Shown one piece after another: positions 1 to 25,124 of a stretch of DNA of 28,947 nt. The stretch lies in the NCBI GenBank assembly GCA_964465735.1, contig CAYXKT010000018.1:1-28947 (forward strand), given 5' to 3'. The stretch is from an uncultured bacterium. GTDB taxonomy: Bacteria; Auribacterota; Erginobacteria; Erginobacterales; Erginobacteraceae. Every line of letters starts with the position of its first letter. Within the stretch, counting starts at the first letter, position 1. Position numbers and translations under genes: made by a program. The notes beneath the pieces were generated by a model. It saw only the letters and a list, made by a program, of their open reading frames with translations. It did no database searches and was not told the origin of the DNA.

Positions 1-54
1 CGTTCGGACGCAAAAGATTGGTGCAGTTCGCCGCATAGAATCGCTCAATTTAGG
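1..54 (+). mobile_element. 161-bp MITE-like element, copy 1 (last 54 bp only; cut by window edge)
   Basis: Bases 1-54 are identical to the last 54 bp of the complete copy at 12371-12531 and end in the terminal repeat AATCGCTCAATTTAGG. TGTAA at 55-59 would be one half of the target duplication. Confidence 0.8.
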
Positions 55-135
55 TGTAATGAAGGAGGCGAGACGGGGCGATCCGCAGGACCGTCTGGCC
101 GCAGACCGAACCCAGTCCCGAAAACGGAGGTTATT

Positions 136-501
136 ATGATCCAGATCAAACGTGCGTACGATCCGCCCGCCAGGACGGATGGTACCCGTATCCTGGTGGA
201 GCGGCTCTGGCCGCGCGGGATCAAGAAAGAGGCCTTGAAACTCGATGACTGGTTGAAAGATACCGCGCCCAGCACGGAACTGCGGAAATGGTTCAGTCAC
301 GATCCGGCCAAGTGGACCGAGTTTCAGCGGCGCTACCGGGCTGAACTCGACCGGCATCCCGAGGCGTGGCAGCCGATCCTCGACGCGGCGAAAAAAGGCC
401 GGGTGACGCTGATTTTCAGTTCCCACGACGCTGAACACAACAATGTGGTGGCGTTAAAGGCGTACCTGAAAGGACGGTTAAAGGAGGGGGAAAAGCGCTG
501 A
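136..501 (+). CDS. yeaO: DUF488 family protein (YeaO-like)
   Basis: 121-aa ORF with GGAGG 5 nt upstream of the ATG. The sequence KRAYDPPARTDGTRILVERLWPRGIKK...STELRKWF closely follows the E. coli YeaO/DUF488 pattern as I recall it. Confidence 0.9.
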   Translation: MIQIKRAYDPPARTDGTRILVERLWPRGIKKEALKLDDWLKDTAPSTELRKWFSHDPAKWTEFQRRYRAELDRHPEAWQPILDAAKKGRVTLIFSSHDAEHNNVVALKAYLKGRLKEGEKR

Positions 502-508
502 TCCCCTT

Positions 509-649
509 TCAACCAAAGACCACCGCCGCAGAATAGAGATATGCCACCGAGACCGCCAGGCCGATCAGGGTCGTCATCCCCGGAGATTTCTTCTTCAGTT
601 GGGAGTGAAGTCCGGATAAAAACGCCCGCCCTCCGTAGAAATAATAAAA
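509..649 (-). pseudogene. Relic of a heavy-metal (P1B-type) ATPase, about 46 codons
   Basis: The tail of ORF 509..769 reads FYYFYGGRAFLSGLHSQLKKKSPGMTTLIGLAVSVAYLYSAAVVFG*. This matches the CopA-type segment F-x-G-x-x-F...L-x(5)-M-D-x-L-x-A-L-G-x-x-A-A-Y-x-Y-S. No HMA, phosphorylation or ATP-binding domains are present, and the fragment is squeezed between two intact genes. Confidence 0.5.
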
Positions 650-686
650 GTCGCGAGCGCGAGATCTTTTTTCTCCCCGTCTGGGC

Positions 687-2066
687 CTAACTTTCCTCGC
701 CCTTCCGGATCGGGCAGCCGATCTCGGAGCAGGCTTGCATCGATCCCAGGCAGGACTCGACCCGGTCAAATCCGTTTATCTTCAGCAGGGAAGCGGCGAT
801 GATCGCCCGCCGCCCATTGCCGCAGAAAGTAATCAGAGGCCGTTCTTTAGGGATCTTTTTTAAGTGTTGGGGCAGCTCACCTAAGTAGATCGAAATTGCT
901 CCCGGCAGATGGCCGGAGAGGAACTCCTCCCGGGATCGGACATCGAGCAGGGTGAAGCTGTCTTTCCGGGTGATCTTCTCGACGATCTCGGCGGCGTGAA
1001 CTGTCGGGATCCGGTCGTATCTCCGCCCGCTGGACTCCCAGTAAAGGAGGCCGGGGGCGAGAAAGAACGGGATGTCTTCATACCCCATTCGGAAGAGGTG
1101 GCGTCCGGCGATCCGGGCTGCCCGCCCCTCCTCGGCCACCAGACCGATCGGGCGGTCGTAGGAAAGAAACCAGCCGGCGAACTGGGCGATCATCTCCAGG
1201 GGGATGGCCAGGCTGCCGGGGATGAAGGCCCCGGAGATCGCTTCCGGACTTCGCAGATCGACGATCACCATCCCCCGGGCCGCCTCGGCGGCGAATTCCT
1301 CGGCCCCGGCCGCTGCCGGTCGGACCGGCCACCACGGCGCGGCGGTTCCTTCCAGGTTGAGAAGTTCCATCCGCTGAAAGTACGGGGGGTGGTAATGAAA
1401 TTCGTTGGCCTTGCGGGCGATAAACTCGTCTCGTCCCTTAACTTGCAGGCTCGGATTATAAAGCCGTTCCAGGCCGATGGTGGAGAACTCCCGGGGTGAA
1501 AGGGAGGCGCCGCAGGCCGAACCGGCGCTGTGGGCGGGATAAATAATGGTGGAGTCGCCCAGGGGCAGGAGCTGATTAAAGATACTCTCGTAGAGCAGCC
1601 CGGCGAGTTCCTCGCGCCGGTGAGGCAGTAAATCGGTCCGACCGGTCGCCCCGACAAAGAGGGTGTCGCCGGTAAAGACCGCCACCGGGGAAGCGCCCGC
1701 CCCCCGTTCATAGAGGACGATTGAGATCGATTCGTCGGTATGGCCCGGGGTCTCTAAAATCTTCAGGGTGAGATCGCCGAACGAGAACTCATCCTCTTCG
1801 GTGACCGCCTCGCCATAGGCAAACGGGAGGGCCGCTCCGTGCCGGATCGGCGCCCCGGTTTGTCCGGCCAGTTCGACCGCTCCGCTGACGTAATCTTCGT
1901 TACGGTGAGTCTCGAAAATCTCGGTGATCCGGCAACTCTCCCGTTCGGCGATTGACCGGTAGATGGAGCAGTCCCTCCTGGGATCGATCACCGCCGCCTT
2001 CCCCTCGTCGCCAAAGATATAGGAGAGATGGGCCAGGCCTTCGGTCCGGATTTTTTCCAGAAACAT
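687..2066 (-). CDS. MBL-fold metallo-hydrolase fused to tandem rhodanese domains (persulfide-dioxygenase-like / sulfurtransferase)
   Basis: ORF 687..2099 trimmed to the ATG at 2066, which follows AGGAGG by 6 nt. The N-terminal beta-lactamase fold has ETHRNEDYVSG and TPGHTDES. The C-terminus has two rhodanese-like domains, the last with the active-site loop FCGNGRRA. Confidence 0.9.
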   Translation of the reverse strand: MFLEKIRTEGLAHLSYIFGDEGKAAVIDPRRDCSIYRSIAERESCRITEIFETHRNEDYVSGAVELAGQTGAPIRHGAALPFAYGEAVTEEDEFSFGDLTLKILETPGHTDESISIVLYERGAGASPVAVFTGDTLFVGATGRTDLLPHRREELAGLLYESIFNQLLPLGDSTIIYPAHSAGSACGASLSPREFSTIGLERLYNPSLQVKGRDEFIARKANEFHYHPPYFQRMELLNLEGTAAPWWPVRPAAAGAEEFAAEAARGMVIVDLRSPEAISGAFIPGSLAIPLEMIAQFAGWFLSYDRPIGLVAEEGRAARIAGRHLFRMGYEDIPFFLAPGLLYWESSGRRYDRIPTVHAAEIVEKITRKDSFTLLDVRSREEFLSGHLPGAISIYLGELPQHLKKIPKERPLITFCGNGRRAIIAASLLKINGFDRVESCLGSMQACSEIGCPIRKGEES

Positions 2067-2213
2067 CAGCTGCCTCCTGGTTCCCGGGCTTTCCCGCACC
2101 GGGAATGTTTATCGGTTAGCAACACTTTAGCCTTCTAAAAACGTTATTGATTGTCATCGCGATCCGGATTTTCTATCCGGTTTCTCGCGGATCCGGCTGC
2201 GGACGAATGCCTT

Positions 2214-2248
2214 GTCTCATAGTAGATGAGACTGGCATCTGATATAAT
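2214..2248 (+). promoter_or_regulatory. Palindrome GTCTCAT-N5-ATGAGAC followed 7 nt later by the extended -10 TGATATAAT (orphan copy)
   Basis: gtctcatagtagatgagactggcatctgatataat. This is a near-duplicate, in inverted orientation, of the module at 5508-5542 upstream of OFOR. No plus-strand gene follows it. Confidence 0.4.
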
Positions 2249-2400
2249 GTGTAAATCGCGCTACTGAAATTACGCTGGCTCCCAAGGGAAATACTGTCTC
2301 GGATTATGATCTGGCCCTCCTTTGTCGGCGCTCATTTTTTTTGCACCAGGTCAAAACCGAATCTCCAATTGAGATTGTCCTTGAGTTGAATATATTGATA

Positions 2401-2561
2401 CCTAAATTGAGCGATTCTATGCGGCGAACTGCACCAATCTTTTGCGTCCGAACGGATATTGAAAATCCTCGCCATATCTCCTGGATATGGCTGCGGTTTT
2501 CGCAACCCGTCGGCCGGCAAAATCTTAGCACATTTCATCCGCGATAATCGCTCAACTTAGG
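2401..2561 (-). mobile_element. 161-bp MITE-like element, copy 2
   Basis: Termini are CCTAAATTGAGCGATT ... AATCGCTCAACTTAGG. It is flanked by the 5-bp direct repeat TGATA (2396-2400 and 2562-2566). One SNP against the consensus (G at 2543). Confidence 0.9.
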
Positions 2562-2580
2562 TGATATACTTTTTTAGTGA

Positions 2581-2622
2581 GTCTCATTGAAGCTGAAACG
2601 CCAGTCTCATTGAAGATGAAAC
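2581..2622 (+). repeat. Two tandem degenerate copies of the GTCTCAT-N5-ATGAGAC palindrome
   Basis: gtctcattgaagctgaaac (2581-2599) and gtctcattgaagatgaaac (2604-2622). The segment gccagtctcattgaagatgaaacgcgac resembles gccggtctcatcgactatgagacgcgac at 5520-5547. Both lie just to the right of a MITE copy. Confidence 0.4.
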
Positions 2623-2648
2623 GCGACCGACGAAAAACGGAAGACGGA

Positions 2649-3515
2649 TCAGATCCGTAAGCCGGCAAAGAGCTGGACCAGACGATCCCGATCGAACTTC
2701 CTTTGGTAGAGCGGTTTGCCTTCCGCGGGGAGATCTTCACCGAGAGTCTTTTCAAACGTGGTTTTCTCCGGGCCGCGGTAGAGGATGCCCAGGGGATATT
2801 TCTCAGTTTCGATCGCCCGGGCAAAGGCCGCCCTCCGGTCCGAAGGGTTGTGATCATCCTCCAGGTAATAGCTGTTCTCCTGGAACCAGTCATAGGTATT
2901 TACCCGGTTGAAGGTTACGCAGGGTTGGAAGATATCCACCAGGGCGAAACCCCGATGCCGGATGGCCTGCTTCAGGATCTCTCCAGTCTGGGCGAAATTT
3001 TTGATATAGGCTCGAGCGACAAAGGAAGCGTTGAGGGCGATCGCCACTGCCAGGGGGTTGAAGGGCTCCTGGGTTACTCCGTCGGTGTCGATCGGGGTGC
3101 GGAATCCGGGGAGACTGGTCGGTGAGGCCTGACCCTTGGTCAGACCGTAGATCATATTGTTGTGGACAATGCAGGTGATATCCGGATTTCTCCGGATACT
3201 ATGAATGAAATGATTTCCTCCCTCCCCGTACATACAGCCGTCGCCGCTTTCGGCGATCACGGTCAGTTCCGGGTTGGCCGCCTTGATCGCGGTGGCCGCC
3301 GGGAGCGCGCGGCCGTGGAGGCCGTTGAAAAAATTGGTTTTCAGGTACTGAGGGGTCTTGGCCGCCTGTCCGATCCCGGAGACCATCACCAGTTTTTCCG
3401 GGACGATCTCCAGTTCGGCCAGCGATTTTTTTAAGATATTCAGAATCCCGAAATTCCCGCAGCCGGGGCACCAGGCGATCTCGGCGTTTTCCAAATTGAA
3501 GGGGTTTTTATTCAT
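2649..3515 (-). CDS. 2-oxoacid:ferredoxin oxidoreductase, beta (TPP-binding) subunit
   Basis: 288 aa with an N-terminal WCPGCGNFG and the TPP motif [13 protein letters not shown]. Its start overlaps the stop of the upstream alpha gene by 8 nt. Confidence 0.9.
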
Positions 3516-5217
3516 TGTCGGCCTCCTGATTTAAAGCTTGGCTGATCTCTTCCCGGCTGAAGGGAAGTCCGTCATATTTGTTGACTCCGGTCAGGTTCTC
3601 CGGACCGAAGGTCATCTTCAGCAGCCGGGCGAACTGGCCGGAGAGGTTATTTTCGATGACGATGATCCTTTCCGCCCGCTGGAGATATTCCGCGGTCTTC
3701 GGATGGAGGGGATAAACCTGGCGGAAGTGGAGTCCGCCGATCCCTTTTTCACTTCTCTTCTCCAGGCACTCCCGGATGACGGGATAAGTGGAGCCCCAGC
3801 CGATGACCAGGGTTCGATAGTCCCGGTCCCCGAAAAATTTCGGCTCCAGCGCCTCTCGTGTCAGGAGGGCGAGTTTTTCCTGCCGCTTGTCGGCCATCTC
3901 TACCCGGCAGGAGAAACTCTCGGTGATCCGTCCGGACCGATCGTGTTCGTCGCTGTCCACCGCCACTGTCCCCCGGCCCCAGCCGGGGATGCCCCGGGGG
4001 GAAACCCCGTCTTCGCCGGGTTCGTAGCGCCGGTAGTCCGGGCCTGTCTCGACAATCCGGTTCCCCGGATCTTCCTCGGGGATCTCGGGCTGGGGGAGAT
4101 TGTAAGCGGAGTCGAGCAGGTACTGATCGGTGAGGACGATTACCGGGACCTGGCAGCGATCAGCGAGGAGAAAAGCTTGGCGGGTGAGAAAGAAGCATTC
4201 CTCGATTGTCCCCGGGGCGAAGATCGCCCGGGGAAATTCGCCGTGTCCGGCGAAGAGGGAGTGGAGCAGATCGCCTTGTTCGGTCCGGGTGGGCAGCCCG
4301 GTGGCCGGTCCGGGGCGCTGTCCGAGGTGGATGACCAGCGGTGTCTCGATCATCCCGGCCAGGCTCAACCCCTCGTTCATCAGGGCGAAGCCGCCGCCCG
4401 AGGTGGTTACCAACCCCCTCCCTCCGGCGTACCAGGCGCCCAGGGCCATATTGACCGCCGAGATCTCGTCCTCGGCCTGGATCACCTCGATATTGAAGTC
4501 AGATGACTTACCGGCCAGAAAGACCCCGACCCCGGTGGCCGGGGACATCGGGTAGAAGGAGAGGAAGTTGCAGCCCCCGGCGATCGCCCCCAGGGCCACA
4601 CCCTGGGTGCCGTTTAAAAAGACTTCACCCGCTTTATCCCCGGGGCTTATCTGCGGGAAGGTCAACCCCTTCTCCCGGGCGATCTCCCGACCTCTTTGCC
4701 GGCCGCGCCGGAAAGCCCGGAGGTTGTTCTCCTGGATCTCTGTGCCGAAACGGGAAAAATAGCTCTCGACGATCGTCTCCGCCGCCGCCTCTTCCAGGCC
4801 CAGAACCCCGGCAATCGCCCCGACCGAGACGGTATTGGCGTAAACCGCGCCGCCCAGTTCTTCGGCGATCTTCTGCCAGGAGACCGAGGCGAAGTTCTCC
4901 CGTTCCCGGTCCTCGTCGCGGACTGTCTTTTCATCGCTGAGGATCAGGGTTTCGGCTTCTACCCGGTCGCCGATATGGGCCACTCCGCCGGCGTGAAGTG
5001 AGACCAGGATATCCACCCGACGGCTGAAGCTTCTCACCCGCGAGGAGGAGATCCGGATCGCGGTCGAGTTCATCCCGCCCCGGATCCGGGACATTAATTC
5101 CTGGGTGGTGAAGACATTGTACCCGCCACCGGTAAATATCCGGGCCAGAACCCCCTCCAGGGTATTAATCCCCTGGCCGGCTTGACCGCAGATCACTATT
5201 GTCACATCTTCATTCAT
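3508..5217 (-). CDS. 2-oxoacid:ferredoxin oxidoreductase, fused gamma/alpha subunit
   Basis: ORF 3508..5253 trimmed to the ATG at 5217, with GGAGGG 6 nt upstream. It has an N-terminal gamma-type domain ([15 protein letters not shown]) and an alpha domain ([14 protein letters not shown]). No delta/ferredoxin subunit gene is adjacent. Confidence 0.9.
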
Positions 5218-5340
5218 AATTGTCCCTCCGATCGGAAAAGTGAGTTCTGTCAAAAATGATAACCACCGAGAATACAGAGCGTATTACAATAAAAGGGCTT
5301 AAATAAAATGACTCTTTCTCCCCCTCAATGTTCTCTTAAA
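5218..5340 (-). promoter_or_regulatory. Paralogous 5'-leader cassette (OFOR copy)
   Basis: Minus-strand reading. TAAGAGAACATTGAGGGGGAGAAAGAGTCATTTTATTTAA (5338->5299) is 40/40 identical to 12316-12355. It is followed by ...TTTTGACAGAAC (5255->5244), then GGAGGG and the ATG at 5217. Overall 83/95 nt identical, with equal length, to the FDP leader once the MITE is removed. Confidence 0.5.
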
Positions 5341-5501
5341 CCTAAATTGAGCGATTCTATGCGGCGAACTGCACCAATCTTTTGCGTCCGAACGGATATT
5401 GAAAATCCTCGCCATATCTCCTGGATATGGCTGCGGTTTTCGCAACCCGTCGGCCGGCAAAATCTTAGCACATTTCATCCGCAATAATCGCTCAACTTAG
5501 G
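5341..5501 (-). mobile_element. 161-bp MITE-like element, copy 3
   Basis: Identical to the consensus. It is flanked by TTAAA (5336-5340) and TTACA (5502-5506), a 4/5 direct repeat. It sits between the -10 box and the leader of the OFOR operon. Confidence 0.9.
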
Positions 5502-5507
5502 TTACAC

Positions 5508-5542
5508 ATTATATCAGATGCCGGTCTCATCGACTATGAGAC
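5508..5542 (-). promoter_or_regulatory. Candidate OFOR promoter/operator: GTCTCAT-N5-ATGAGAC palindrome plus extended -10 TGATATAAT
   Basis: The minus strand reads gtctcatagtcgatgagaccggcatcTGaTATAATg. TGnTATAAT is a textbook extended -10, and the 7-5-7 perfect palindrome covers the -35 region. Confidence 0.5.
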
Positions 5543-5773
5543 GCGACACCTGGCGATGACCTGATCTTCGCGGTTTATCGATCAGACACTATTTAAGCGG
5601 ATGGCACGAGAAATTCCAACCGGCTGACTCCCCCTTTTTCTGACTTTATTCCACTTGCGGTTTCTCCCCAATCCATCTATACTGATTGATACAGTCATCT
5701 TAACTGTCTTTCGTTATCAAGTCCCGGGGTTTCGGTCTTTAACCCGGGTGAATATAATCCGGGAGCGATCGAG

Positions 5774-6499
5774 ATGCCCTACAATATTCTGCTGGTCGAT
5801 GACGACTCCGATTTTCGTGAAGAGTTCAAGGATTACTTCCGGGGTTATCGGGTTATCGGGGTGGGCCGGGGCGATCAGGCCTTACTCGAGCTGGAGAAGC
5901 CCAATGAGATTGACCTGGTAGTCCTCGATGTCCGGCTGCCGGAATCCTCGGGGACCGAGATCCTCCAGCGGATCAAGCGATCCTGGCCGGATCTGGGAGT
6001 GATCATCCTCACCGGATTCGGATCGAAGAGTGTGGTGATCAACGCTCTGCAGGGGGAAGCCGACGGGTATCTGGAGAAACCGCTGGATATCGAGAAGACC
6101 GAGGCGGCGATTGAGAAGGTCCTCCGGCGGTCCCGCTGGCCGGCGGGGATTGAGGCGGAGGATATCGAAGGGAAGATGGAACGGGTCAAAGTCTTTCTGC
6201 GCAGGAACGTCCACAAAAAGGTTACCCTCCAGGCGGCGGCCGCGGTAGTGGCTCTCAGCCCGAAGTACTTGAGCCGGATCTTTCGGGAAGTTACCGGCAG
6301 GAAGTTCAACCGGTACAAGCTGGAGCTGAAGATCGAGCAGGCGAAGGAATGGCTGGCCGAAACCGGGCACAGCGTGGATATGATCGCCTACTCCCTCGGC
6401 TACCTCAACGCGGAGTCCTTTATCCGGATCTTCAAGAAATTCACCGGGCAGACCCCCACCGCTTACCGGAAATCCGTCTCCCGGCGGAGGTCCAAGTGA
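5774..6499 (+). CDS. Response regulator, REC domain + AraC-type HTH output
   Basis: 241 aa. The receiver has LLVDDD, LVVLDVRLP and EKPLD. The C-terminus has the AraC signature (LSPKYLSRIFREVTG...AYSLGYLNAESFIRIFKKFTGQTPTAYR). Confidence 0.9.
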   Translation: MPYNILLVDDDSDFREEFKDYFRGYRVIGVGRGDQALLELEKPNEIDLVVLDVRLPESSGTEILQRIKRSWPDLGVIILTGFGSKSVVINALQGEADGYLEKPLDIEKTEAAIEKVLRRSRWPAGIEAEDIEGKMERVKVFLRRNVHKKVTLQAAAAVVALSPKYLSRIFREVTGRKFNRYKLELKIEQAKEWLAETGHSVDMIAYSLGYLNAESFIRIFKKFTGQTPTAYRKSVSRRRSK

Positions 6500-8109
6500 G
6501 CGGACAGAGATCTTCCGACCAGCCGGACTCCGCTGATCTTCCCCGGAGGAAGGTCGCGGGACCGGGGCGGCGCGACGGCCACCGGCTGGCCGGGACTCCG
6601 GTGGCGAATCCGGCCAGTCAGGACAAAGAACTCGAACGTTTGAGGCGGGTTCTCGACTCGATGGTGGACCTGGTCTATGTGACCGACTCCAGCTGCCGGA
6701 TTGAATATATCAATCCGGCGATGCGCCGGGCCTTTGGTCCGATCCGGGGGAGAAAATGCTTTGCCTATTTACATCACCGGGACCAGCCTTGTCCCTGGTG
6801 TCGGCGGGACGAGGTCTTGCGGGGAGAGGTGATCCGCTCAGAGTGGTCTCCCCCCGCTACCGGGCGGACATACGATATCATCGAAACGGCGATCCCCAAA
6901 CCCGACGGCACCGCCTCCAAGCTGAAGATGATGCGGGATATTACCGAAAGCCGGCGCCTGAAAGATGACCTGGAACGGTTCAACGATAAACTCGAGAAGG
7001 TTGTCGTTCGTCGGACAGTGGAGCTTTCCGAGGCCAGCGAACTTCTGGAACGGTTTTTTTCCAGTATCCATTTTCTCCTCGCCTATCTGGACGCTGACTT
7101 CAACTTCCTCCGTGTCAACCCGGCTTATGCCGCGGCCTCTCGCCGTACCCCGGAATACTTTGTCGGCAAGAACCACTTCCGATTATTCCCTGACCGGGAG
7201 AACCGGGAGATCTTCGAGGAGGTGGTCCGGACCGGCCGGCCCTTTGTCGCTACTGCCCGTCCTTTTGTTTATCCCGATCATCCGGAGTGGGGTGTCACCT
7301 ATTGGGACTGGTCGCTCCGGTCGGTAAAAGAAAAATCCGGCCGGGTCGAGGCCCTGCTCCTGGTTTTATTTGACGCCACCGAACGCCGGCGGAGTGAGGA
7401 GAAAGCCGCTCGGGCCGAGAGAAAGATGGCTGATATGTCCCGGCTGGCCGAACTTGGTACCCTGTCCGCGATGGTAGCTCACGAGGTGCGCACCCCTTTA
7501 GCCGCCATCCAGATGGCCGCCCATAACCTTAGACTGAAGACCGCCGATCCCGCTCTTCTCAAGCACGTCGATTCCATCGATCGCAAGGTGGAGTTTGGCG
7601 GTCAGGTGATCGCCAACCTTCTGGAATATTCCCGGATTCAGCTTCCCGGGTATCAGCGGATCAACATCCTGCCGGTAGTACGCGACTGTATTGCCGCCTC
7701 GATCCGCCTCCATCGCCCGAAGTCAGTTTCCCTCGCCCTCGATCTCCAGGAATTGAGTAGGGTCAAAATCGATGCCGACCCCGCCCAGCTCCGCCAGATC
7801 TTCAATAACATTATGAATAACGCGATCGAGGCCGGCAGGGAAAACGACTGTCAGGTTAGAGTCCAGGCTCGGATAACCCAGGATCAGTCTGTCATCTTCC
7901 GGTTTTGGAACAACGGTCCACCGATCCCCGAGGAGAACCGGGAGTCGGTTTTTATCCCCTTCTACAGTGCCAAGCCGGATGGGATCGGGCTCGGTCTGCC
8001 GATCTGCCGGGAACTGGTCCGTCTCCACGAGGGGACAATCGAGATCCGGAGCGGACCGGGCCCGGGGACCGAGGTCATCATCCGACTCCCCCTGACCGCC
8101 CAGAAATGA
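6496..8109 (+). CDS. Soluble PAS-domain sensor histidine kinase
   Basis: ORF 6349..8109 trimmed to the GTG at 6496, which overlaps the regulator stop (GTGA) and has GGAGG 5 nt upstream. No TM segment. Two PAS-like regions, the H-box MVAHEVRTPLAAI, and the ATPase N/G boxes (NNIMNNAIEA, DGIGLGLPI). Confidence 0.85.
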   Translation: MSGQRSSDQPDSADLPRRKVAGPGRRDGHRLAGTPVANPASQDKELERLRRVLDSMVDLVYVTDSSCRIEYINPAMRRAFGPIRGRKCFAYLHHRDQPCPWCRRDEVLRGEVIRSEWSPPATGRTYDIIETAIPKPDGTASKLKMMRDITESRRLKDDLERFNDKLEKVVVRRTVELSEASELLERFFSSIHFLLAYLDADFNFLRVNPAYAAASRRTPEYFVGKNHFRLFPDRENREIFEEVVRTGRPFVATARPFVYPDHPEWGVTYWDWSLRSVKEKSGRVEALLLVLFDATERRRSEEKAARAERKMADMSRLAELGTLSAMVAHEVRTPLAAIQMAAHNLRLKTADPALLKHVDSIDRKVEFGGQVIANLLEYSRIQLPGYQRINILPVVRDCIAASIRLHRPKSVSLALDLQELSRVKIDADPAQLRQIFNNIMNNAIEAGRENDCQVRVQARITQDQSVIFRFWNNGPPIPEENRESVFIPFYSAKPDGIGLGLPICRELVRLHEGTIEIRSGPGPGTEVIIRLPLTAQK

Positions 8110-8244
8110 TCCACTCCTCCCGGCTGTCCGGTTTTTGGGGGAAAGTGGACTTCCGGCGTGGAGAAAAGTCAAAAGAAAGCGGAAACCGGCGGTTGTTTCC
8201 GGCATCCGTCTAAGAGAGAATCATACAACCTTTGAAAAGCCCCG

Positions 8245-8631
8245 ATGCCCAAGCGCTATAAAATTCTTCTGCTCGATGACGACGCTGATCTGGTTGAAGA
8301 ACTCTCCGACGCCCTGACCGCGGCCGGCTACGAGGTCAGGTCCTTTACCGACGGAGAGACGGCCCTGGCTGCCGCCGACGATCTGAGACCGGATATCGCC
8401 TTGATTGACCTGAAGATGAAGGGGATCAGCGGGTTCCAGGTGTCCCGGGAACTGGGCCGGAGAAAATCGACCTCGGGAATTCCGATAGTGGCGATGACCG
8501 GATACTATACCGGCCGCGAGGACGAGAAAAAGATGAAGCAGAGCGGTATCCGGGCCTGTCTGTTCAAGCCCTTCTCTTTTGAGGTGGCGGCCCGGAAGTT
8601 GAAATGTCTGCTGAAAGGATCGGGAATTTAA
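8245..8631 (+). CDS. Stand-alone CheY-like receiver protein
   Basis: 128 aa with LLLDDD, ALIDLKMKG and FKPF receiver signatures and no output domain. Confidence 0.9.
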   Translation: MPKRYKILLLDDDADLVEELSDALTAAGYEVRSFTDGETALAAADDLRPDIALIDLKMKGISGFQVSRELGRRKSTSGIPIVAMTGYYTGREDEKKMKQSGIRACLFKPFSFEVAARKLKCLLKGSGI

Positions 8632-8650
8632 TTGGGAGGTAAAAAGAGCG

Positions 8651-9085
8651 ATGAGACTGACCAGTCCTGTTTTTACTGAAGGCGGAGAGATCCCGCCTCG
8701 TTATACCTGTGATGGCGAAGATATCAGCCCCCGGTTGGAGATCGAGGGTATCCCCGAAGGGACCGAGGCCTTGGCCCTGATTATGGATGACCCCGATGCG
8801 CCCGGGAAGACCTTTGTCCACTGGGTGGCTTACGACATTGAACCGGTCGCCCGGTTCGAACAGGACGCGGACGTCGGCATTGGCGGCCTGAATCATTTCG
8901 GGACCAGGGTGTACGGGGGGCCCTGCCCCCCTTCGGGGAGCCACCGTTATATCTTCAAGCTTTACGCCCTGAACCGGAAACTTGGTCGCGAGGCGGGTAT
9001 GAACAAGGAAGAGCTATTAAAGGAGATCGAGGGCTCCATCCTGGCGGTGGCTGAATTAACCGGTCGCTATCGCCGGAATAAATAA
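8651..9085 (+). CDS. YbhB/YbcL (PEBP / Raf-kinase-inhibitor-like) family protein
   Basis: 144 aa with the motifs YTCDGEDISP, DDPDAP, FVHWV and GPCPPSGSHRYIFKLYAL. Confidence 0.9.
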   Translation: MRLTSPVFTEGGEIPPRYTCDGEDISPRLEIEGIPEGTEALALIMDDPDAPGKTFVHWVAYDIEPVARFEQDADVGIGGLNHFGTRVYGGPCPPSGSHRYIFKLYALNRKLGREAGMNKEELLKEIEGSILAVAELTGRYRRNK

Positions 9086-9283
9086 TCCGGAGGAGTAATT
9101 ATCCCGGAAGATAGGTTGATTTTCCGGGACAAGATGTCCGCGACCATAGACAGCTTAGAGCGTTCCAGCCGGTTGACGAAGCAGCGGTATCGTCTTCTCG
9201 GCGACTCGGGCGGTCCTGAAAAAAGAGCGGTTATCATTGCCTTCAACCTTCAGCCTGCAACCTAATAACCTGAGGAGATGGAT

Positions 9284-9796
9284 ATGGCAAAAATTGCGGT
9301 TTTGATCGATAACGATTTTGAGGATTCGGAATACACTCGGCCGGCAGAGGCTTTCCGGGAGGCCGGCCATCAGGTTGTCCACCTGGGGAAGAAGCAGGGG
9401 AGCGTGGTCCGGGGCAAGAAAGAGCAAACCCCGGTTGTCATAGACCGGGAAGTCGGCCAGGCCGATCCGGCGGAGTTCGACGCGCTCCTGATCCCCGGCG
9501 GTTATTCCCCCGACCGTCTCCGAGCTTTCCCGGAACCGGTGGCCTTCGTCCGGGAGTTTGTCGGGACCGCCCGGCCGGTATTTTTTATCTGTCACGGCGG
9601 CCAGCTCTTGATTACCGCCGACGTCCTGAAAGGGAGAAAGGTCACCGGCTGGAGATCGATCGCCCGCGATCTGATCAACGCGGGGGCCGATTACCGGGAC
9701 GAGGAGGTGGTGGTGGACGATAATTTTGTCTCCAGCCGCCAGCCCTCCGACCTCGACGCGTTCATCCGGGAATCCCTGAAACAGCTGGCCGGATAG
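9284..9796 (+). CDS. DJ-1/PfpI family protein (general-stress / deglycase-protease type)
   Basis: ORF 9278..9796. The second ATG (9284) has better spacing from GAGGAG. Has the nucleophile elbow FFICHGGQLL and DALLIPGG. An alternative start at 9278 is possible. Confidence 0.9.
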   Translation: MAKIAVLIDNDFEDSEYTRPAEAFREAGHQVVHLGKKQGSVVRGKKEQTPVVIDREVGQADPAEFDALLIPGGYSPDRLRAFPEPVAFVREFVGTARPVFFICHGGQLLITADVLKGRKVTGWRSIARDLINAGADYRDEEVVVDDNFVSSRQPSDLDAFIRESLKQLAG

Positions 9797-9877
9797 ACTG
9801 CCCACCCGCCCCTTTCTACAGGTCCGGAGTCAAGTCGATCTCCCTCTCCACCCCCGAGGGCATCGGCTTACTTTACA

Positions 9878-10038
9878 CCTAAATTGAGCGATTCTATGCG
9901 GCGAACTGCACCAATCTTTTGCGTCCGAACGGATATTGAAAATCCTCGCCATATCTCCTGGATATGGCTGCGGTTTTCGCAACCCGTCGGCCAGCAAAAT
10001 CTTAGCACATTTCATCCGCAATAATCGCTCAACTTAGG
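9878..10038 (-). mobile_element. 161-bp MITE-like element, copy 4
   Basis: Perfect 5-bp direct repeat TTACA (9873-9877 and 10039-10043). One SNP against the consensus (A at 9993). Confidence 0.9.
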
Positions 10039-10088
10039 TTACAGATGAAGTATGACTGGCAATCTAAAATAAATAGCGGGAGGAATAA

Positions 10089-11075
10089 TTGGATATGAAC
10101 GAAAGCGGAGATCTCAAGCCGAAAGTCTCGATCATCGGCGGCGGTAATGTCGGACTCCGCTACGCCTATGCCCTGATGATCCGCGGGATTGCCCGCCGGA
10201 TCTGCCTGGTCGATCTCGATTTCAAGCGACTGGAGGGGGATGTGATGGACCTCAACCACGGCGTCCCCTATATCTCCCCGGTTGAAGTTATCGCCGGCGA
10301 TTATCCCGATATCGAGGGTTCCGATCTGGTGGTGGTGACCGCCGGGAAGGGCCAGGTCCCCGGCCAGTCCCGGCTCGATCTTATCCGGGCCAACGTCGAG
10401 CTTTACCGGATCATCATCCCCCAAATTGTCCGCTTCGCCCCCCGGGCCCTTTTGCTGATCGTCTCCAACCCGGTCGATATCCTGGCCTATGCCGCTTACC
10501 GGATCTCGAAGAAGCCTCCCGGGGAGGTTATCGGCGCCGGGACAGTGCTTGACACCGCCCGGTTACGCTTCCTGCTCGGCCGGCACTGCCGGGTCGATAC
10601 CCGCAACGTCCACGCCTATATCCTCGGCGAGCACGGCGACAGCGAGTTCCCCGCCTGGTCTCGAGCCTTGATCGGCGGGATGTTCCTGAAAGACTACTGT
10701 ACGGTCTGCCCCTTCCGCGAGACCTGTGACCACGAGAAGGTCCTCGGGGAGATCTTCGTGCGGGTGCGGGACTCCGCTTATCGGATTATCGAGCGCAAGG
10801 GCGAGACCTCCTATGGTATCGGCCTGGCTCTGGCCCGGATCACCCGGGCGATTCTCAACGACGAGAACGCCATCCTCCCGGTCTCCTCGCTCTTTACCGA
10901 TTACCCGGGAGGAGAGGAGGTTTACTTGAGCCTCCCGGCCGTGGTCAACCGGGAGGGGGTGCGTCAGGTTATCCGCCTGAAACTGGACCCCGCGGAAGAA
11001 GATGCCCTGGTCCGTTCCGCCGGGGTTATCCGGGAGGTGATCGGCCAATTGGATCTGCCCGGGCCGTCCGTTTGA
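10089..11075 (+). CDS. ldh: L-lactate dehydrogenase (LDH/MDH superfamily)
   Basis: Rossmann IIGGGNVG and catalytic GEHGDSE. A Gln in the specificity loop (GKGQVPGQSRLDL) favours lactate over malate. Start is TTG 10089 (6 nt after GGGAGG) or ATG 10095. Confidence 0.85.
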   Translation: MDMNESGDLKPKVSIIGGGNVGLRYAYALMIRGIARRICLVDLDFKRLEGDVMDLNHGVPYISPVEVIAGDYPDIEGSDLVVVTAGKGQVPGQSRLDLIRANVELYRIIIPQIVRFAPRALLLIVSNPVDILAYAAYRISKKPPGEVIGAGTVLDTARLRFLLGRHCRVDTRNVHAYILGEHGDSEFPAWSRALIGGMFLKDYCTVCPFRETCDHEKVLGEIFVRVRDSAYRIIERKGETSYGIGLALARITRAILNDENAILPVSSLFTDYPGGEEVYLSLPAVVNREGVRQVIRLKLDPAEEDALVRSAGVIREVIGQLDLPGPSV

Positions 11076-11094
11076 CGGGACCGATATACTGGAA

Positions 11095-11255
11095 CCTAAA
11101 TTGAGCGATTCTATGCGGCGAACTGCACCAATCTTTTGCGTCCGAACGGATATTGAAAATCCTCGCCATATCTCCTGGATATGGCTGCGGTTTTCGCAAC
11201 CCGTCGGCCGGCAAAATCTTAGCACATTTCATCCGCAATAATCGCTCAACTTAGG
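11095..11255 (-). mobile_element. 161-bp MITE-like element, copy 5
   Basis: Identical to the consensus, with a perfect 5-bp direct repeat TGGAA (11090-11094 and 11256-11260). It begins 19 nt after the ldh stop. Confidence 0.9.
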
Positions 11256-11355
11256 TGGAAGAAACCGGGGGTGGGAAACTGAGGAAAGCAGGGCGCAGCG
11301 GGAAAGTCCCCTCACCGCCCCCCCAATAAAATGACCAGGAATAGCGCCAACTGAA

Positions 11356-11395
11356 TATTTTGACAGAACTAAATCTAACCCAGGGAGGTATGGCT
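11356..11395 (+). promoter_or_regulatory. Short version of the shared leader (SOR copy): TATTTTGACAGAAC-N13-GGGAGG
   Basis: TTGACAGAAC at 11360-11369 lies exactly 36 nt upstream of the ATG at 11396. The spacing is the same at the OFOR and FDP genes. Confidence 0.4.
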
Positions 11396-11791
11396 ATGAC
11401 CGCGTTGTCGAAAAATTTTCAAACCGCTGATTGGAAAAACGAGAAACACGTTCCGGTGATCGAGGCCCCCGAGAAAGCGGAGAAAGGGGAGCTCTTCACA
11501 GTTAAGGTCAGCGTGGGCCGGGAGGTCGCTCACCCCAACAAAACCGAGCACCATATCCGCTGGATTGACCTCTACTTCCACCCCGAAGGGGAGAAGTTCC
11601 CCTACCAGATCGGGAAGGTTGAGTTCTGCGCCCACGGCGCTTCGGTCTCGGGGCCGGATACCAGCACAGTCTATACTCACCCCTCGGCAGTCTTCAGTTT
11701 CCAGACCGGGAAACCCGGGACCATCTTGGCATCTTCTTACTGCAACATCCACGGACTGTGGGAGAACTCCGCCGAACTGGCGGTGGAATAA
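11396..11791 (+). CDS. Superoxide reductase, 1Fe (neelaredoxin) type
   Basis: ORF 11360..11791 trimmed to the ATG at 11396, 7 nt after GGGAGG. The motifs EKHVPVIE, HPNKTEHHIRWIDLY and CNIHGLW supply the His4Cys iron ligands typical of SOR. Confidence 0.85.
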   Translation: MTALSKNFQTADWKNEKHVPVIEAPEKAEKGELFTVKVSVGREVAHPNKTEHHIRWIDLYFHPEGEKFPYQIGKVEFCAHGASVSGPDTSTVYTHPSAVFSFQTGKPGTILASSYCNIHGLWENSAELAVE

Positions 11792-12052
11792 CTTCTTTCC
11801 GGATGGTTCTCGAGGAGACCGGCTTCAACTTTTCAATCTCCTCTTCCACCTCCTCGGTACCCTCGGCATAAAACTTCGCTTCGTCAGGGGTCAGTCCGGG
11901 GAGGAGTCGGAGAAACTTCCGGCTTGGCCTGTCTCCTTCTGGTTGGCGGGCTTTGGCGGTTGCCGAGTTCTGTCGGGAGGTGTATAATCCCTGGTAGATA
12001 TCGAGCCATTGTCTGGAATGTGCAGTATGGTACTGTCAAAAATTTCATAAAA

Positions 12053-12127
12053 AAGAATGAAACCACAGAGACCACTGAGAGAATTCAGGATCAAGTTTTT
12101 CCTTCTTCTCTGTGAACACTAAATACT
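12053..12127 (+). repeat. 75-nt intergenic repeat block, copy A
   Basis: aagaatgaaaccacagagaccactgagagaattcaggatcaagtttttccttcttctctgtgaacactaaatact. By hand count it is 61/75 identical, without gaps, to 23736-23810. Confidence 0.6.
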
Positions 12128-12307
12128 GCAAAAGAAGTCGGGCCTCACCGCTAAGATTTTTCCGCGGAAGGGGACGCGGCAGCGCAGATATAGGCGGTTG
12201 AAAGTAGGCCCCGGATATTCGCGGCGCAATAATTAACGTATTTAAATGCCGCCGGCAAGAAAGTCGGATTAATCATTAACATTTGCCCAAGGACAGGACT
12301 AAAAGGA

Positions 12308-12355
12308 TGGTATTTTAAGAGAACATTGAGGGGGAGAAAGAGTCATTTTATTTAA
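12308..12355 (+). promoter_or_regulatory. Paralogous leader cassette (FDP copy), proximal part with a -10-like TGgTATTTT
   Basis: TGGTATTTT (12308-12316) runs into TAAGAGAACATTGAGGGGGAGAAAGAGTCATTTTATTTAA (12316-12355). The same 40-mer occurs upstream of OFOR, and a 2-mismatch version occurs at 23997-24030. Confidence 0.45.
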
Positions 12356-12370
12356 TCCCTTCTAGTTCAA

Positions 12371-12531
12371 CCTAAGTTGAGCGATTATTGCGGATGAAAT
12401 GTGCTAAGATTTTGCCGGCCGACGGGTTGCGAAAACCGCAGCCATATCCAGGAGATATGGCGAGGATTTTCAATATCCGTTCGGACGCAAAAGATTGGTG
12501 CAGTTCGCCGCATAGAATCGCTCAATTTAGG
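12371..12531 (+). mobile_element. 161-bp MITE-like element, copy 6
   Basis: Exact reverse complement of the consensus, with a perfect 5-bp direct repeat TTCAA (12366-12370 and 12532-12536). It is inserted inside the FDP leader cassette. Confidence 0.9.
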
Positions 12532-12536
12532 TTCAA

Positions 12537-12602
12537 TACTCTCTGTGTTCTCTGTGATTATTTATTTTGACAGAACGTTCAACATAACCGGGAGGTCTGT
12601 TT
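12537..12602 (+). promoter_or_regulatory. Paralogous leader cassette (FDP copy), distal part with TTGACAGAAC and RBS
   Basis: tactctctgtgttctctgtgattatttaTTTTGACAGAACgttcaacataaccGGGAGGtctgttt then ATG. TTGACA begins at 12567, 36 nt before the ATG at 12603. Confidence 0.45.
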
Positions 12603-19439: not shown

Positions 19440-19710
19440 TCCGCCGGGATCACGATGGCCCTGAAGTCGGCCACGGTGGACGCCGCCGGCGTGCCGTTGG
19501 CCGTCCTGCCTTGAGCTGCGGGATGTTTATCCGGACTTTGGTGGATTTCCTGATCATCGCCGCCGCCATCTTTATGGTCACCAAGGCGATGAACGTGATA
19601 CGGGAAAAGAAGGAAGAGGCACCGGCCGCTCCCCCGGCCCCAACCAGGGAAGAAGCCCTCCTGACCGAGATCCCCGACCGGATTCAAAGGAAGCAACCCT
19701 CCGTCCCGGC
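19440..19710 (+). pseudogene. mscL: mscL relic (large-conductance mechanosensitive channel), 5'-truncated and frameshifted
   Basis: Frame 3 reads ...FSAGITMALKSATVDAAGVPLAVLP* (stop at 19512). Frame 2 continues GMFIRTLVDFLIIAAAIFMVTKAMNVIREKKEEAPAAPPAPTREEALLTEI. That is the loop, TM2 and C-terminal helix of MscL (compare E. coli [55 protein letters not shown]). TM1 is absent and the natural stop is lost. Confidence 0.55.
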
Positions 19711-19840
19711 CGGATGGGCACCGAGCTTGGTTCAGTTCGGGCAAGAAGAATGTAGCACGGGCATTGCTGTCTGTGTAGGCCTGGTCACAGGCAGGAATAC
19801 CTGTGCTACTCTGGCCGGCATCCAGACCACCTTTCTTGCG

Positions 19841-21568
19841 TTATCGGGTATTGCAGTTTCGCACTCCGATATACGGTCCCAGGACCATATCCCGATAGCC
19901 CTTCCCCGCCGGGATGAAGGGATAGACCGCTTCTTCCCGGTCGATGATTACCTCGAGGAAAGACGGGCCCTCCGCGGCCAAAAAATCGTCCAGCGCCCCC
20001 TCCAGTTCTTCCGGCCGTTGGATTCTTTGCTGCCAGGTAAAGCCGCATTCGGCGGCAATCCGAGAGAAATCGGCGCCGAACTCACGTTCAGTGGCGGTAA
20101 AACGGCGGTGGTAATGGACGGCCTGGAGTGTCCGGACCATCCCGTCGGCCTGGTTGTTGAGCAGCAGTACCTTGATCGGGAGGCCCAGGGAGCCGATGGT
20201 ATGGATCTCCCCCATATTCATCTTGATCGAACCGTCACCGTCGATAGCGATTATCCGGGAGTCGGGGTCGGAGAAATAGGCCCCGACCGCGGCCGGGAGG
20301 GCGAACCCCATCGTTCCGAAAGACCCCGGGGTGAGAAATGACTTCGGCCGGGCCATCGGGAGATATTGGGCGGCCAGCATCTGGTGCTGCCCGACTCCGG
20401 TGGTGACCCGGGTTTCCTCGGTCAGCCGCCGGGAGAGGAGATCCATTACCTCGGCCGCCTGGATCAGGTCGCTGTCCCGGTTATAATCGAGCCGCAGGGA
20501 TTGTTTCAGTTGGGCCACCCGTTTCTGCCAGTCCTTGATCTCCAGCCCGACCGGGTGCCGGCCGGCATACTCCAGGAGATCTTTGAGGACAGCGCAGGCG
20601 TCACCGATGAAGGAGAATTTCGGGTTCCGGGTGACCCGGACCTCCTGGACTTTCTCCGGGTGGATATCGATATAGGCGATATCCGCTTCCAGCCCGGATT
20701 CCCCGACCTTCTGGGAGACGCGATCGTTCCAGCGGACCCCGAAGGCGACGAAGAGATCAGTCTCCTGGATGGCCAGATTGGCGGCCGGATTCCCGAACAT
20801 CCCCAGCATCCCCAGCGAGGTCTCGAGAGTCTCATCAACTACCCCCTTGGCCATCAGGCTGATGATCGAGGGGATCTGGAAGATCCGGTTGAACTCCCGC
20901 ACTTTCCGGCTGGCCGCCCGCGAATTGAGTCCGCCCCCGATATAGAGGAGCGGCCGTCGGGACTGTTCCAGCAGCTGGAAGAACTGTCGGCATTGGTTTT
21001 CTCCCAGGTGCGATTCCTGGTCGTATTTCAACCGGAAACGTTCGATCTCGATTCCCTGATAATCGCTCTCGGCCTGTTGGCTGTCGAAGGGGAAATCGAT
21101 GACTACCGGACCCGGTTTCCCGGCGCGGGCGTAGAACCAGGCGTCCTTGACCGCTTCCTCGATCCGGGCGGGATCGGTGATCTGGATTACCTTCTTGGCT
21201 GCCCGGGCAAAGATATTTCCGACATCGATGTGCTGGAACTCGTCAGTGCCCAGCCGGCTCTGCCGGACCTGTCCGGCAAAGACCAGCAAGGGGATGGAGT
21301 CGGCATAGGAGTCGGCCACCGCGGTCAGGGTATTGGTGATTGCCGGCCCCGAAGTCACCACTACCACCCCTGTCCGGTCCCCGGAGCGGGAATATCCCGC
21401 CGCCGAGAAGGCGCACGACTGTTCGTTGGAATTGACAGTGATCGAGATCGAGCTCTTTCCCAGGGCGTCAAAGACCGGGAGGATTGCCGCGCCGATATAA
21501 CCGAAGACCCGATCCACGCCCAGGTCCTCGAGACTTTTGACCATAATCGAGGCCCCATTCATTTTCAT
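19841..21568 (-). CDS. ilvB: Acetolactate synthase large (catalytic) subunit / TPP-dependent enzyme
   Basis: 575 aa with the N-terminal MNGASIMVKSLEDLGVDRVFGY and the TPP motif IDGDGSIKMNMGE...LLLNNQADGMV. No small-subunit gene is adjacent. Confidence 0.9.
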   Translation of the reverse strand: MKMNGASIMVKSLEDLGVDRVFGYIGAAILPVFDALGKSSISITVNSNEQSCAFSAAGYSRSGDRTGVVVVTSGPAITNTLTAVADSYADSIPLLVFAGQVRQSRLGTDEFQHIDVGNIFARAAKKVIQITDPARIEEAVKDAWFYARAGKPGPVVIDFPFDSQQAESDYQGIEIERFRLKYDQESHLGENQCRQFFQLLEQSRRPLLYIGGGLNSRAASRKVREFNRIFQIPSIISLMAKGVVDETLETSLGMLGMFGNPAANLAIQETDLFVAFGVRWNDRVSQKVGESGLEADIAYIDIHPEKVQEVRVTRNPKFSFIGDACAVLKDLLEYAGRHPVGLEIKDWQKRVAQLKQSLRLDYNRDSDLIQAAEVMDLLSRRLTEETRVTTGVGQHQMLAAQYLPMARPKSFLTPGSFGTMGFALPAAVGAYFSDPDSRIIAIDGDGSIKMNMGEIHTIGSLGLPIKVLLLNNQADGMVRTLQAVHYHRRFTATEREFGADFSRIAAECGFTWQQRIQRPEELEGALDDFLAAEGPSFLEVIIDREEAVYPFIPAGKGYRDMVLGPYIGVRNCNTR

Positions 21569-23478: not shown

Positions 23479-23654
23479 GACTTCCGGGGTTATCCTGTCC
23501 CGCGGACAAGGAGCCGATCTTCCGGGTCGGGTAAAATCAAGAAGAATATAGTTGCCGGTGGCGGATCAGCGGGATATATTATTATATCGATCGCACACCT
23601 ACTATGTCGGGATAATTGCTCGGTTAGATAGTACCTGAACGGCAACCGCCAGGT

Positions 23655-23726
23655 ACATAGAATTTGTCATTGCGAGGAACGAATGACGAAGCAATCTCAT
23701 TTCGGAATAAACAGATCGCCTTCCTC
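23655..23726 (+). repeat. REP-like palindromic repeat R1 (3' arm truncated)
   Basis: acatagaatttgtcattgcgaggaacgaatgacgaagcaatctcat...acagatcgccttcctc is about 80% identical to 25035-25106. Confidence 0.6.
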
Positions 23727-23735
23727 TTTATGAGA

Positions 23736-23810
23736 AAGAATGAAACCACCAGGACCACTGGGAAAATTCAGGATCACGTCTTTCGACTTTATCTGTGAAC
23801 TCTAAAAACT
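23736..23810 (+). repeat. 75-nt intergenic repeat block, copy B
   Basis: aagaatgaaaccaccaggaccactgggaaaattcaggatcacgtctttcgactttatctgtgaactctaaaaact is 61/75 identical to 12053-12127. Confidence 0.6.
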
Positions 23811-23988
23811 AATGTTCTCCTAAGCGGATTATATATCCTCATTCGGAAATAACAAAAGAATCATATCTCGCGCCATCGAAGGGCGTCAGAGTTGAGGACC
23901 GGGGTTATGCGCAAGTGGGTATGAGCAAGCATCAGCCGATGAATTTGGCTTGAGAAAGATTGTTTTTGCGCGACAATAGAGTATCAAA

Positions 23989-24065
23989 TGGTATTTTAAG
24001 GGAACATTGAGGGGGAGAAAGAGTCGTTTTGTTTTGACAGAACGCCAACACTAAATAGGAGCCGG
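23989..24065 (+). promoter_or_regulatory. Paralogous leader cassette (secreted-hypothetical copy, short form, no MITE)
   Basis: TGGTATTTTAAGGGAACATTGAGGGGGAGAAAGAGTCGTTTTGTTTTGACAGAACgccaacactaaatAGGAGccgg then ATG. It lacks the roughly 48-nt middle segment present in the OFOR and FDP copies. Confidence 0.45.
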
Positions 24066-25007: not shown

Positions 25008-25034
25008 GCGGTCCCGGAACGAAAATCTCAAATT

Positions 25035-25124
25035 ACATAGACTTTGTCAGCGCGAGGAAGAAGTGGCGAAGCAATCTCATCACAGAACAAACAGATTGCT
25101 TCCTCGTCCCTCCTCGCAATGATC
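25035..25124 (+). repeat. REP-like long palindromic repeat R2 (complete hairpin)
   Basis: gtcagcgcgaggaagaagtggcGAAGCAATCTcatcacagaacaaacAGATTGCTTCctcgtccctcctcgcaatgatc. There is a 10-bp inner stem plus outer gcgagg/cctcgc pairing. It lies 28 nt after the stop of the secreted-protein gene and is followed by GGGGTTTTTGTTT. Confidence 0.65.

Follow-up and report, generated by a model that had tools for sequence, protein, structure and literature searches.

The stretch of DNA analysed here, hereafter the window, comprises 28,947 nucleotides (nt) of contig CAYXKT010000018.1 (assembly GCA_964465735.1) from an uncultured bacterium of the family Erginobacteraceae, phylum Auribacterota. Its Pfam-supported genes include those for a 2-oxoacid:ferredoxin oxidoreductase pair, a two-component system, PEBP, DJ-1, Ldh/Mdh, desulfoferrodoxin, an FprA/ODP flavoprotein, Omp85/TamB, a peroxiredoxin, Hsp20 and Lon, and no transposase is found among them. 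A protein named from Candidatus Erginobacter occultus shares 83% identity with the window's FprA. Between some of these genes lies a short repeat, present as five complete copies of 161 base pairs (bp) and one partial copy, that we judge very probably to be a transposable element of the miniature inverted-repeat type (MITE), mobilised in trans by a DDE transposase. A 92%-identical copy is carried by Candidatus Euphemobacter frigidus, whose genus also belongs to the Erginobacteraceae.

A first-pass annotation, made by a model from the letters of the window, had reported six copies of exactly 161 bp where complete, at most one base from the consensus, all intergenic and with no transposase open reading frame (ORF) in the window. 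A repeat finder and a pattern search recovered the same six copies (Table 1), and these descriptions agree with our results and with the Pfam gene map. The copies beginning at 5341, 11095 and 12371 (the last as its reverse complement) are mutually identical, and the partial copy, when reverse-complemented, equals consensus nt 1-54 without a mismatch. The other two carry one change each, A>G at window position 2543 (copy 2401) and G>A at 9993 (copy 9878). Four copies are oriented one way, whereas copy 12371 and the partial copy are inverted, and for this reason a same-strand comparison returns only 63% identity. The window contains 11 occurrences of the 16-nt terminus CCTAARTTGAGCGATT, compared with 0.34 expected from shuffles. 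Every copy is intergenic relative to the Pfam-supported genes, none of which overlaps a copy, and thus the element has no coding capacity.

The terminal inverted repeats, CCTAAATTGAGCGATT and CCTAAGTTGAGCGATT (termini also given in the form CCTAARTTGAGCG), begin with CC and match at 15 of 16 positions. Their imperfect continuation, previously put at about 24 bp, in fact runs across the entire element, with 57 predicted pairs. The terminus has the conserved layout CCTAARTTGAGCGATT-N2-3-TGCGG, and approximately 42 nt of each arm are conserved across variants. As had been claimed, a different 5-bp direct repeat flanks each complete copy; four of these are perfect (TGATA, TTACA, TGGAA and TTCAA) and one agrees at four of five positions (TTAAA/TTACA). 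The concern that the 5-mers might belong to the repeat itself, raised in the first-pass annotation, is answered by their variation between copies, apart from an invariant first T and last A, which places them outside the repeat.

Relatives of the element were collected in one genome scan (at least 10 stretches), one viral scan (8 loci) and one metagenome scan (86 stretches). Among 53 non-redundant paired relatives from genomes and metagenomes, the flanking duplications are perfect in 40, agree at four of five positions in 10 and at three of five in 3. All 37 unique reconstructed 5-bp targets start with T and finish with A, and only a few of them depart from A or T at the three positions in between; the surrounding DNA is 74% AT. 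The target consensus is T-W-W-W-A. An A invariably precedes the left end, and a T invariably follows the right end.

Evidence of mobility comes from Logan contig L026, assembled from another sample, which is 88-89% identical to the window at the nucleotide level over the regulator genes and mdh. At the site of copy 9878, this contig reads ATCGGCTTATT-TTATA-AATGCGGTATGAC, with a single 5-mer and no MITE, where the window reads ATCGGCTTACT-TTACA-MITE-TTACA-GATGAAGTATGAC. When the MITE and one 5-mer are removed from the window, the two sequences align without gaps over 93 nt across the junction. L026 thus carries a precise empty site for the 9878 insertion, and the element is therefore mobile; the presence/absence polymorphism that the first-pass annotation had suggested seeking does exist. 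Because the copies are nearly identical and an empty site is at hand, the insertions in the window are shown to be very recent, postdating the split from the ~89%-identical strain, in line with the earlier view that near-identity signals very recent mobilisation.

In four other samples, contigs whose encoded proteins are identical (independent Logan/ENA assemblies of this strain) end inside MITE copies, Logan contigs within copy 5341 among them, a behaviour expected of a multi-copy repeat. Samples with this strain include SRR11702754, SRR29792785 and ERZ1761212. The MITE copies thus explain why assemblies of this host fragment at fixed points. No copy was found in the syntenic 17 kb of a relative with 82% amino acid (aa) identity (L027/L028), and no further empty sites were obtained from that relative, whose intergenic DNA is too diverged, or from the 89% strain, where gene order downstream of mdh differs. 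The region at 23727-24043, which is paralogous to DNA beside copy 12371, was considered as an empty site and rejected; about 45 nt of flank is absent along with the MITE, and the match is therefore imprecise.

The inverted termini, the 5-bp duplication, the lack of coding capacity, the near-identity of the copies and the empty site uphold the MITE designation given in the first-pass annotation. We propose that a DDE-type transposase supplied in trans would bind the conserved termini and join the 3' ends of the element to a T-W-W-W-A target with a 5-bp stagger, after which gap repair would yield the 5-bp duplication. Similarities to classical bacterial MITEs (Correia, RUP, ERIC, Nezha and MaeMITEs) include a length of 100-300 bp, intergenic location, terminal inverted repeats, a flanking duplication and a hairpin predicted to be stable. 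For Nezha, too, relatives are known that differ in having a site filled or empty (PMC3184786). The classical elements differ in that they are unrelated in sequence, have other duplications and reside in hosts outside the candidate phylum Auribacterota. For Correia elements the duplication is TA. Nezha was rejected as a relative on the basis of its 10-bp repeat (PMC6042816). The family is undescribed in the literature searched, but it is of a known and ordinary class, and our findings leave the understanding of MITE mechanism unchanged. They do document that transposition is continuing in an uncultured candidate phylum. Several copies directly adjoin redox and oxidative-stress genes, on the upstream or the downstream side, and may alter their expression.

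Table 1. Positions of the MITE copies and of the TTTGACAGAAC motif in the window
Feature	Position	Position with flanks	Flanking 5-mers	Strand	Location	Remarks
Partial MITE copy	1-54			-		Last 54 nt, inverted; cut by window start; TGTAA at 55-59 directly after
MITE copy	2401-2561	2396-2566	TGATA (2396-2400, 2562-2566)	+	Between MBL-rhodanese gene and korB-like gene	One substitution
MITE copy	5341-5501	5336-5506	TTAAA/TTACA (4/5)	+	Divergent region, korA-like gene / response-regulator gene	Consensus sequence
MITE copy	9878-10038	9873-10043	TTACA/TTACA	+	Between DJ-1 and Mdh/Ldh genes	One substitution; empty allele documented here
MITE copy	11095-11255	11090-11260	TGGAA/TGGAA	+	20 nt past Mdh/Ldh stop codon; upstream of desulfoferrodoxin	Consensus sequence
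MITE copy	12371-12531	12366-12536	TTCAA/TTCAA	-	30 nt upstream of TTTGACAGAAC motif, ahead of FprA/ODP gene	Reverse complement equals consensus
TTTGACAGAAC site	5244-5254			-
TTTGACAGAAC site	11359-11369			+
TTTGACAGAAC site	12030-12040			-
TTTGACAGAAC site	12566-12576			+
TTTGACAGAAC site	24033-24043			+

The first-pass annotation had also described a burst of insertions in the first 12.5 kb, with none in the other 16 kb. Although no copies are indeed present in the latter part, the clustering lacks statistical support. Intergenic TNNNA sites are unevenly available, with 133 in the first 12.5 kb and 85 in the remainder of the window, and consequently the probability that all five internal copies land in the first part is approximately 0.08 (or approximately 0.17 if TWNWA sites are counted). 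Once target availability is considered, the confinement is not significant and is weak evidence of anything.

With regard to the enzyme responsible, we lean towards a transposase of the IS1380 family, a prokaryotic relative of piggyBac, as the likeliest partner. This assignment is made because the element has CC/CCT ends and a 5-bp duplication, and because its first eight nt are the same as those of the right repeat of ISEcp1 (CCTAAATT). The ISEcp1 left repeat that the first-pass annotation had quoted in making the same guess proved correct, with a 100% match in 3644 plasmids. The right repeat begins CCTAAATTCCACG and equals the MITE at 8 of the first 8 bases and at 10 of 13 overall; the terminal repeats diverge past nt 8. 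The ends of IS1678, ISPosp7, IS942 and IS1247 match the MITE at five or six of eight positions, and the five annotated IS1380 members checked all begin with CCT or CCC. Duplications in annotated members are 5 bp for IS1678 (GATAG) and 4 bp for ISPosp7, and a 5-bp AT-rich duplication has been reported for ISEcp1 (PMC2887853). Members of this family differ from the MITE in length, being ~1.6-1.7 kb, compared with 161 bp and no transposase gene.

IS1380 transposases serve as an outgroup for piggyBac (PMC10813416), and the comparison extends to that eukaryotic relative. Both piggyBac and the MITE have CC-initiated ends and a short, invariant, palindromic AT target (TTAA for piggyBac, TTWAA/TAWTA for the MITE), whereas the MITE duplicates 5 bp instead of 4 bp and resides in a bacterial host. 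Links between bacterial MITEs and the IS1380/piggyBac lineage are few, and IS1380 is absent from a 2024 review of prokaryotic MITEs.

Several observations weigh against this picture. Our search space for a transposase consisted of the window and ~0.8 Mb of loci around MITE copies in the genome, viral and metagenome data. No transposase of any family was seen beside a terminus in the window, the 10 genome loci, the 8 viral loci or the 86 metagenome stretches, and searches of the entire space by tblastn with five IS1380 proteins and by hidden Markov model at E<=10 returned no IS1380 transposase. The metagenome scan, which would have caught approximately 75% of full-length elements with the same ends, found none. 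Accordingly, while the resemblance of ends and duplication keeps the earlier IS1380 guess plausible, the longer, transposase-bearing element with matching termini that was to accompany it did not appear in the genome, viral or metagenome scans. Moreover, the left flanks of ISEcp1 (TCATA, TGCAG, ATTTC, TCTTT and TAATA) reveal no strict T...A target, looser than the T-W-W-W-A of the MITE. Families of the IS1634, IS701 and ISH3 types also give 4-6-bp duplications. Finally, the sequence is compatible both with a 5-bp duplication outside CC...GG ends and with a 3-bp duplication outside ACC...GGT ends. The strict target and the conserved ~24-42-nt end offer handles for finding the missing transposase.

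The ORFs inspected beside solo ends are ordinary genes. One transposase-like ORF (L109:379-1831) was considered as a parent and rejected. It is a pseudogene in which DruA (DUF4338) is fused to the DNA-binding domain of a Tn5-type transposase, with an in-frame stop and a 58-nt MITE end inside; this locus was interrupted by the MITE fragment and is a target.

The same failure to find an IS1380 gene in ~0.8 Mb of MITE-bearing DNA, and the lack of a strict TWWWA target in ISEcp1, would be expected if a non-IS1380 transposase mobilised the MITE. Such an enzyme could be IS1634-, IS701- or ISH3-like, could belong to the Tn3 family, or could represent an undescribed family. We regard this alternative as unlikely, while ranking it ahead of the other rivals, given the shared eight nt with the ISEcp1 right repeat and the uniform CCT/CCC starts of the IS1380 members. 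Tn3-family repeats start with GGGG, whereas those of the MITE start with CCTAA, and because of this difference an identity as a Tn3-derived TIME seems unlikely. TIMEs do resemble the MITE in being non-autonomous and in duplicating 5 bp in AT-rich DNA, and have repeats 38 bp long (PMC4133298). An origin as an IS5 or PIF-Harbinger-type MITE was rejected, since the duplication comprises 5 bp whose centre varies (for example TGATA, TGGAA, TTCAA) and does not fit the 3-4-bp TNA or CTAG duplications of those elements; the 10-bp repeat of Nezha likewise offers no match.

The genome and metagenome scans place the window's copies within a wider collection of homologous elements that fall into length classes of 161, 191, 196, 226, 253, 278 and 303 bp. 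The metagenome search pattern was designed to pass over canonical 161-bp copies. All classes have ~42 nt at each end in common, and the classes are discrete because two internal inserts combine to account for the differences (relatives among L033-L112, for example L034:185-487 and L056:966-1243). One is a 35-nt insert after nt ~49. The other, between CACATTTCA and TCCGCAATAATCG, consists of zero to three tandem ~25-nt hairpin units (GCATCCCG-N8-CGGG), which are absent from the 161-bp copies of the window. Tandem units of this kind recall the minisatellite-containing MITE of Porphyromonas gingivalis (PMC4596501), which differs in sequence.

The 10 genome stretches listed for the terminus contain MITEs and solo ends, and all 86 metagenome stretches contain MITE variants or truncated ends. 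The viral scan returned mostly chance matches within phage genes and one true relative (L023). Auribacterota yielded members or ends, as did metagenome-assembled genomes labelled Desulfobacterota, Acidobacteriota and Marinimicrobia. It is conceivable, though we consider it doubtful, that these form a MITE superfamily crossing phyla, whose partner would be an undescribed transposase, IS1380/piggyBac-like and with T-W-W-W-A as its obligatory target, and for which a strand-specific role of the hairpin would be possible.

A BLAST search of plasmids with the element gave a sole match, of 20 nt, in Kovacikia minuta plasmid pA (L016:4001-4960). This exact match to the terminus (CCTAAATTGAGCGATTCTAT) starts precisely at the element boundary and is split at a TA by an unrelated IS5-family element of ~945 bp. 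It may represent either a cyanobacterial solo end or chance (E = 6). Separately, an 89-nt repeat with 76% identity, present in the window at 23631-23719 and 25011-25099, contains the palindrome GTCATTGCGAGGAACGAATGACGAAGCAATCTC, and a hairpin akin to it (CATTGCGAG...GCAATC) adjoins a solo MITE end in L005/L045.

The limits of the element itself permit another reading, in which it is 163 bp long (ACC...GGT) and makes a 3-bp duplication inside a T|NNN|A context. The constant A before the left end and T after the right end would then supply one extra inverted-repeat pair, and the empty site in L026 agrees equally well with either model. Under this reading, the outer T and A must still be counted as target context. 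We prefer a 5-bp stagger with CC...GG ends because IS1678, a known CC-ended member of the IS1380 family, duplicates its 5 bp outside those ends, and because of the 5-bp duplication reported for ISEcp1; the 163-bp version seems to us rather improbable.

The whole-length palindrome also deserves attention. Both strands fold far more stably than shuffled sequences (z = -6.7 and -11.3), and 11 of the 57 pairs retain pairing through changes on both sides, as seen in two subfamilies with different cores. On account of these compensatory changes, the palindrome as a whole is maintained, through selection or through correction of one arm by the other. At each of the six positions where the arms differ by a transition, one and the same strand has G.U and its complement A.C, and folding favours the G.U strand by ~16 kcal/mol in 45 of 46 variants, although these variants share ancestry. 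Relative to flanking genes, the copies point either way about equally often (11 versus 12). Given the shared ancestry and the lack of bias, the strand asymmetry may reflect nothing more than differences between left and right ends. If a cross-phylum superfamily does exist, the compensated hairpin with its same-strand G.U pairs may reflect a strand-specific single-stranded intermediate or function, whether of DNA or RNA.

The stable fold, its compensatory changes and the better-folding strand would also suit a structured RNA or a regulatory palindromic repeat (REP/ERIC-like) spread by recombination, but we consider this extremely improbable, as such hairpins fit MITEs and are usual in them, no Rfam match reaches the gathering score in the window, orientation is unbiased, and spread by recombination is already contradicted by the 40 perfect duplications among 53 copies and by the precise empty site. 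No promoter-like site was detected in or near copy 5341.

Beyond the MITE, the motif TTTGACAGAAC occurs five times in the window (Table 1), compared with 0.2 occurrences expected. At least four of these sites are followed, ~25-35 nt further on, by a ribosome-binding site, namely those of the korA-like gene, the desulfoferrodoxin gene, the FprA/ODP gene and an ORF of 313 aa. The motif may act as a promoter, operator or leader common to redox and stress genes. Its conservation does not extend to the 82% relative (L027). A paralogous non-coding region of ~310 nt, at 12044-12353 and 23727-24034, precedes FprA/ODP and the 313-aa ORF, respectively, with blocks that are 80% and 94% identical. In the 24-kb copy, which has no Rfam match, the block ATGGTATTTTAAGGGAACATTGAGGGGGAGAAAGAGTC is 8 nt from TTTGACAGAAC, whereas in the 12-kb copy this spacing is 212 nt, of which 166 are the MITE and its duplication.

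The strain represented by L026 is without the PEBP and DJ-1 genes, having 139 nt (L026:3081-3219) in place of window 8642-10032. Its mdh gene is apparently joined to FprA/ODP via a CCTTCAGCCTTTAA-type tandem repeat that breaks the assembly (L026:4266-4387 and L120:1-84).

Lastly, long ORFs on the + strand at 19511-20341 overlap a well-supported gene for a thiamine pyrophosphate (TPP) enzyme on the opposite strand (19841-21568). Only the first ~58 residues of the ORF at 19511 match MscL, specifically its C-terminal half, and thus the + strand ORFs in this area are probably largely spurious, or else mscL is frameshifted.

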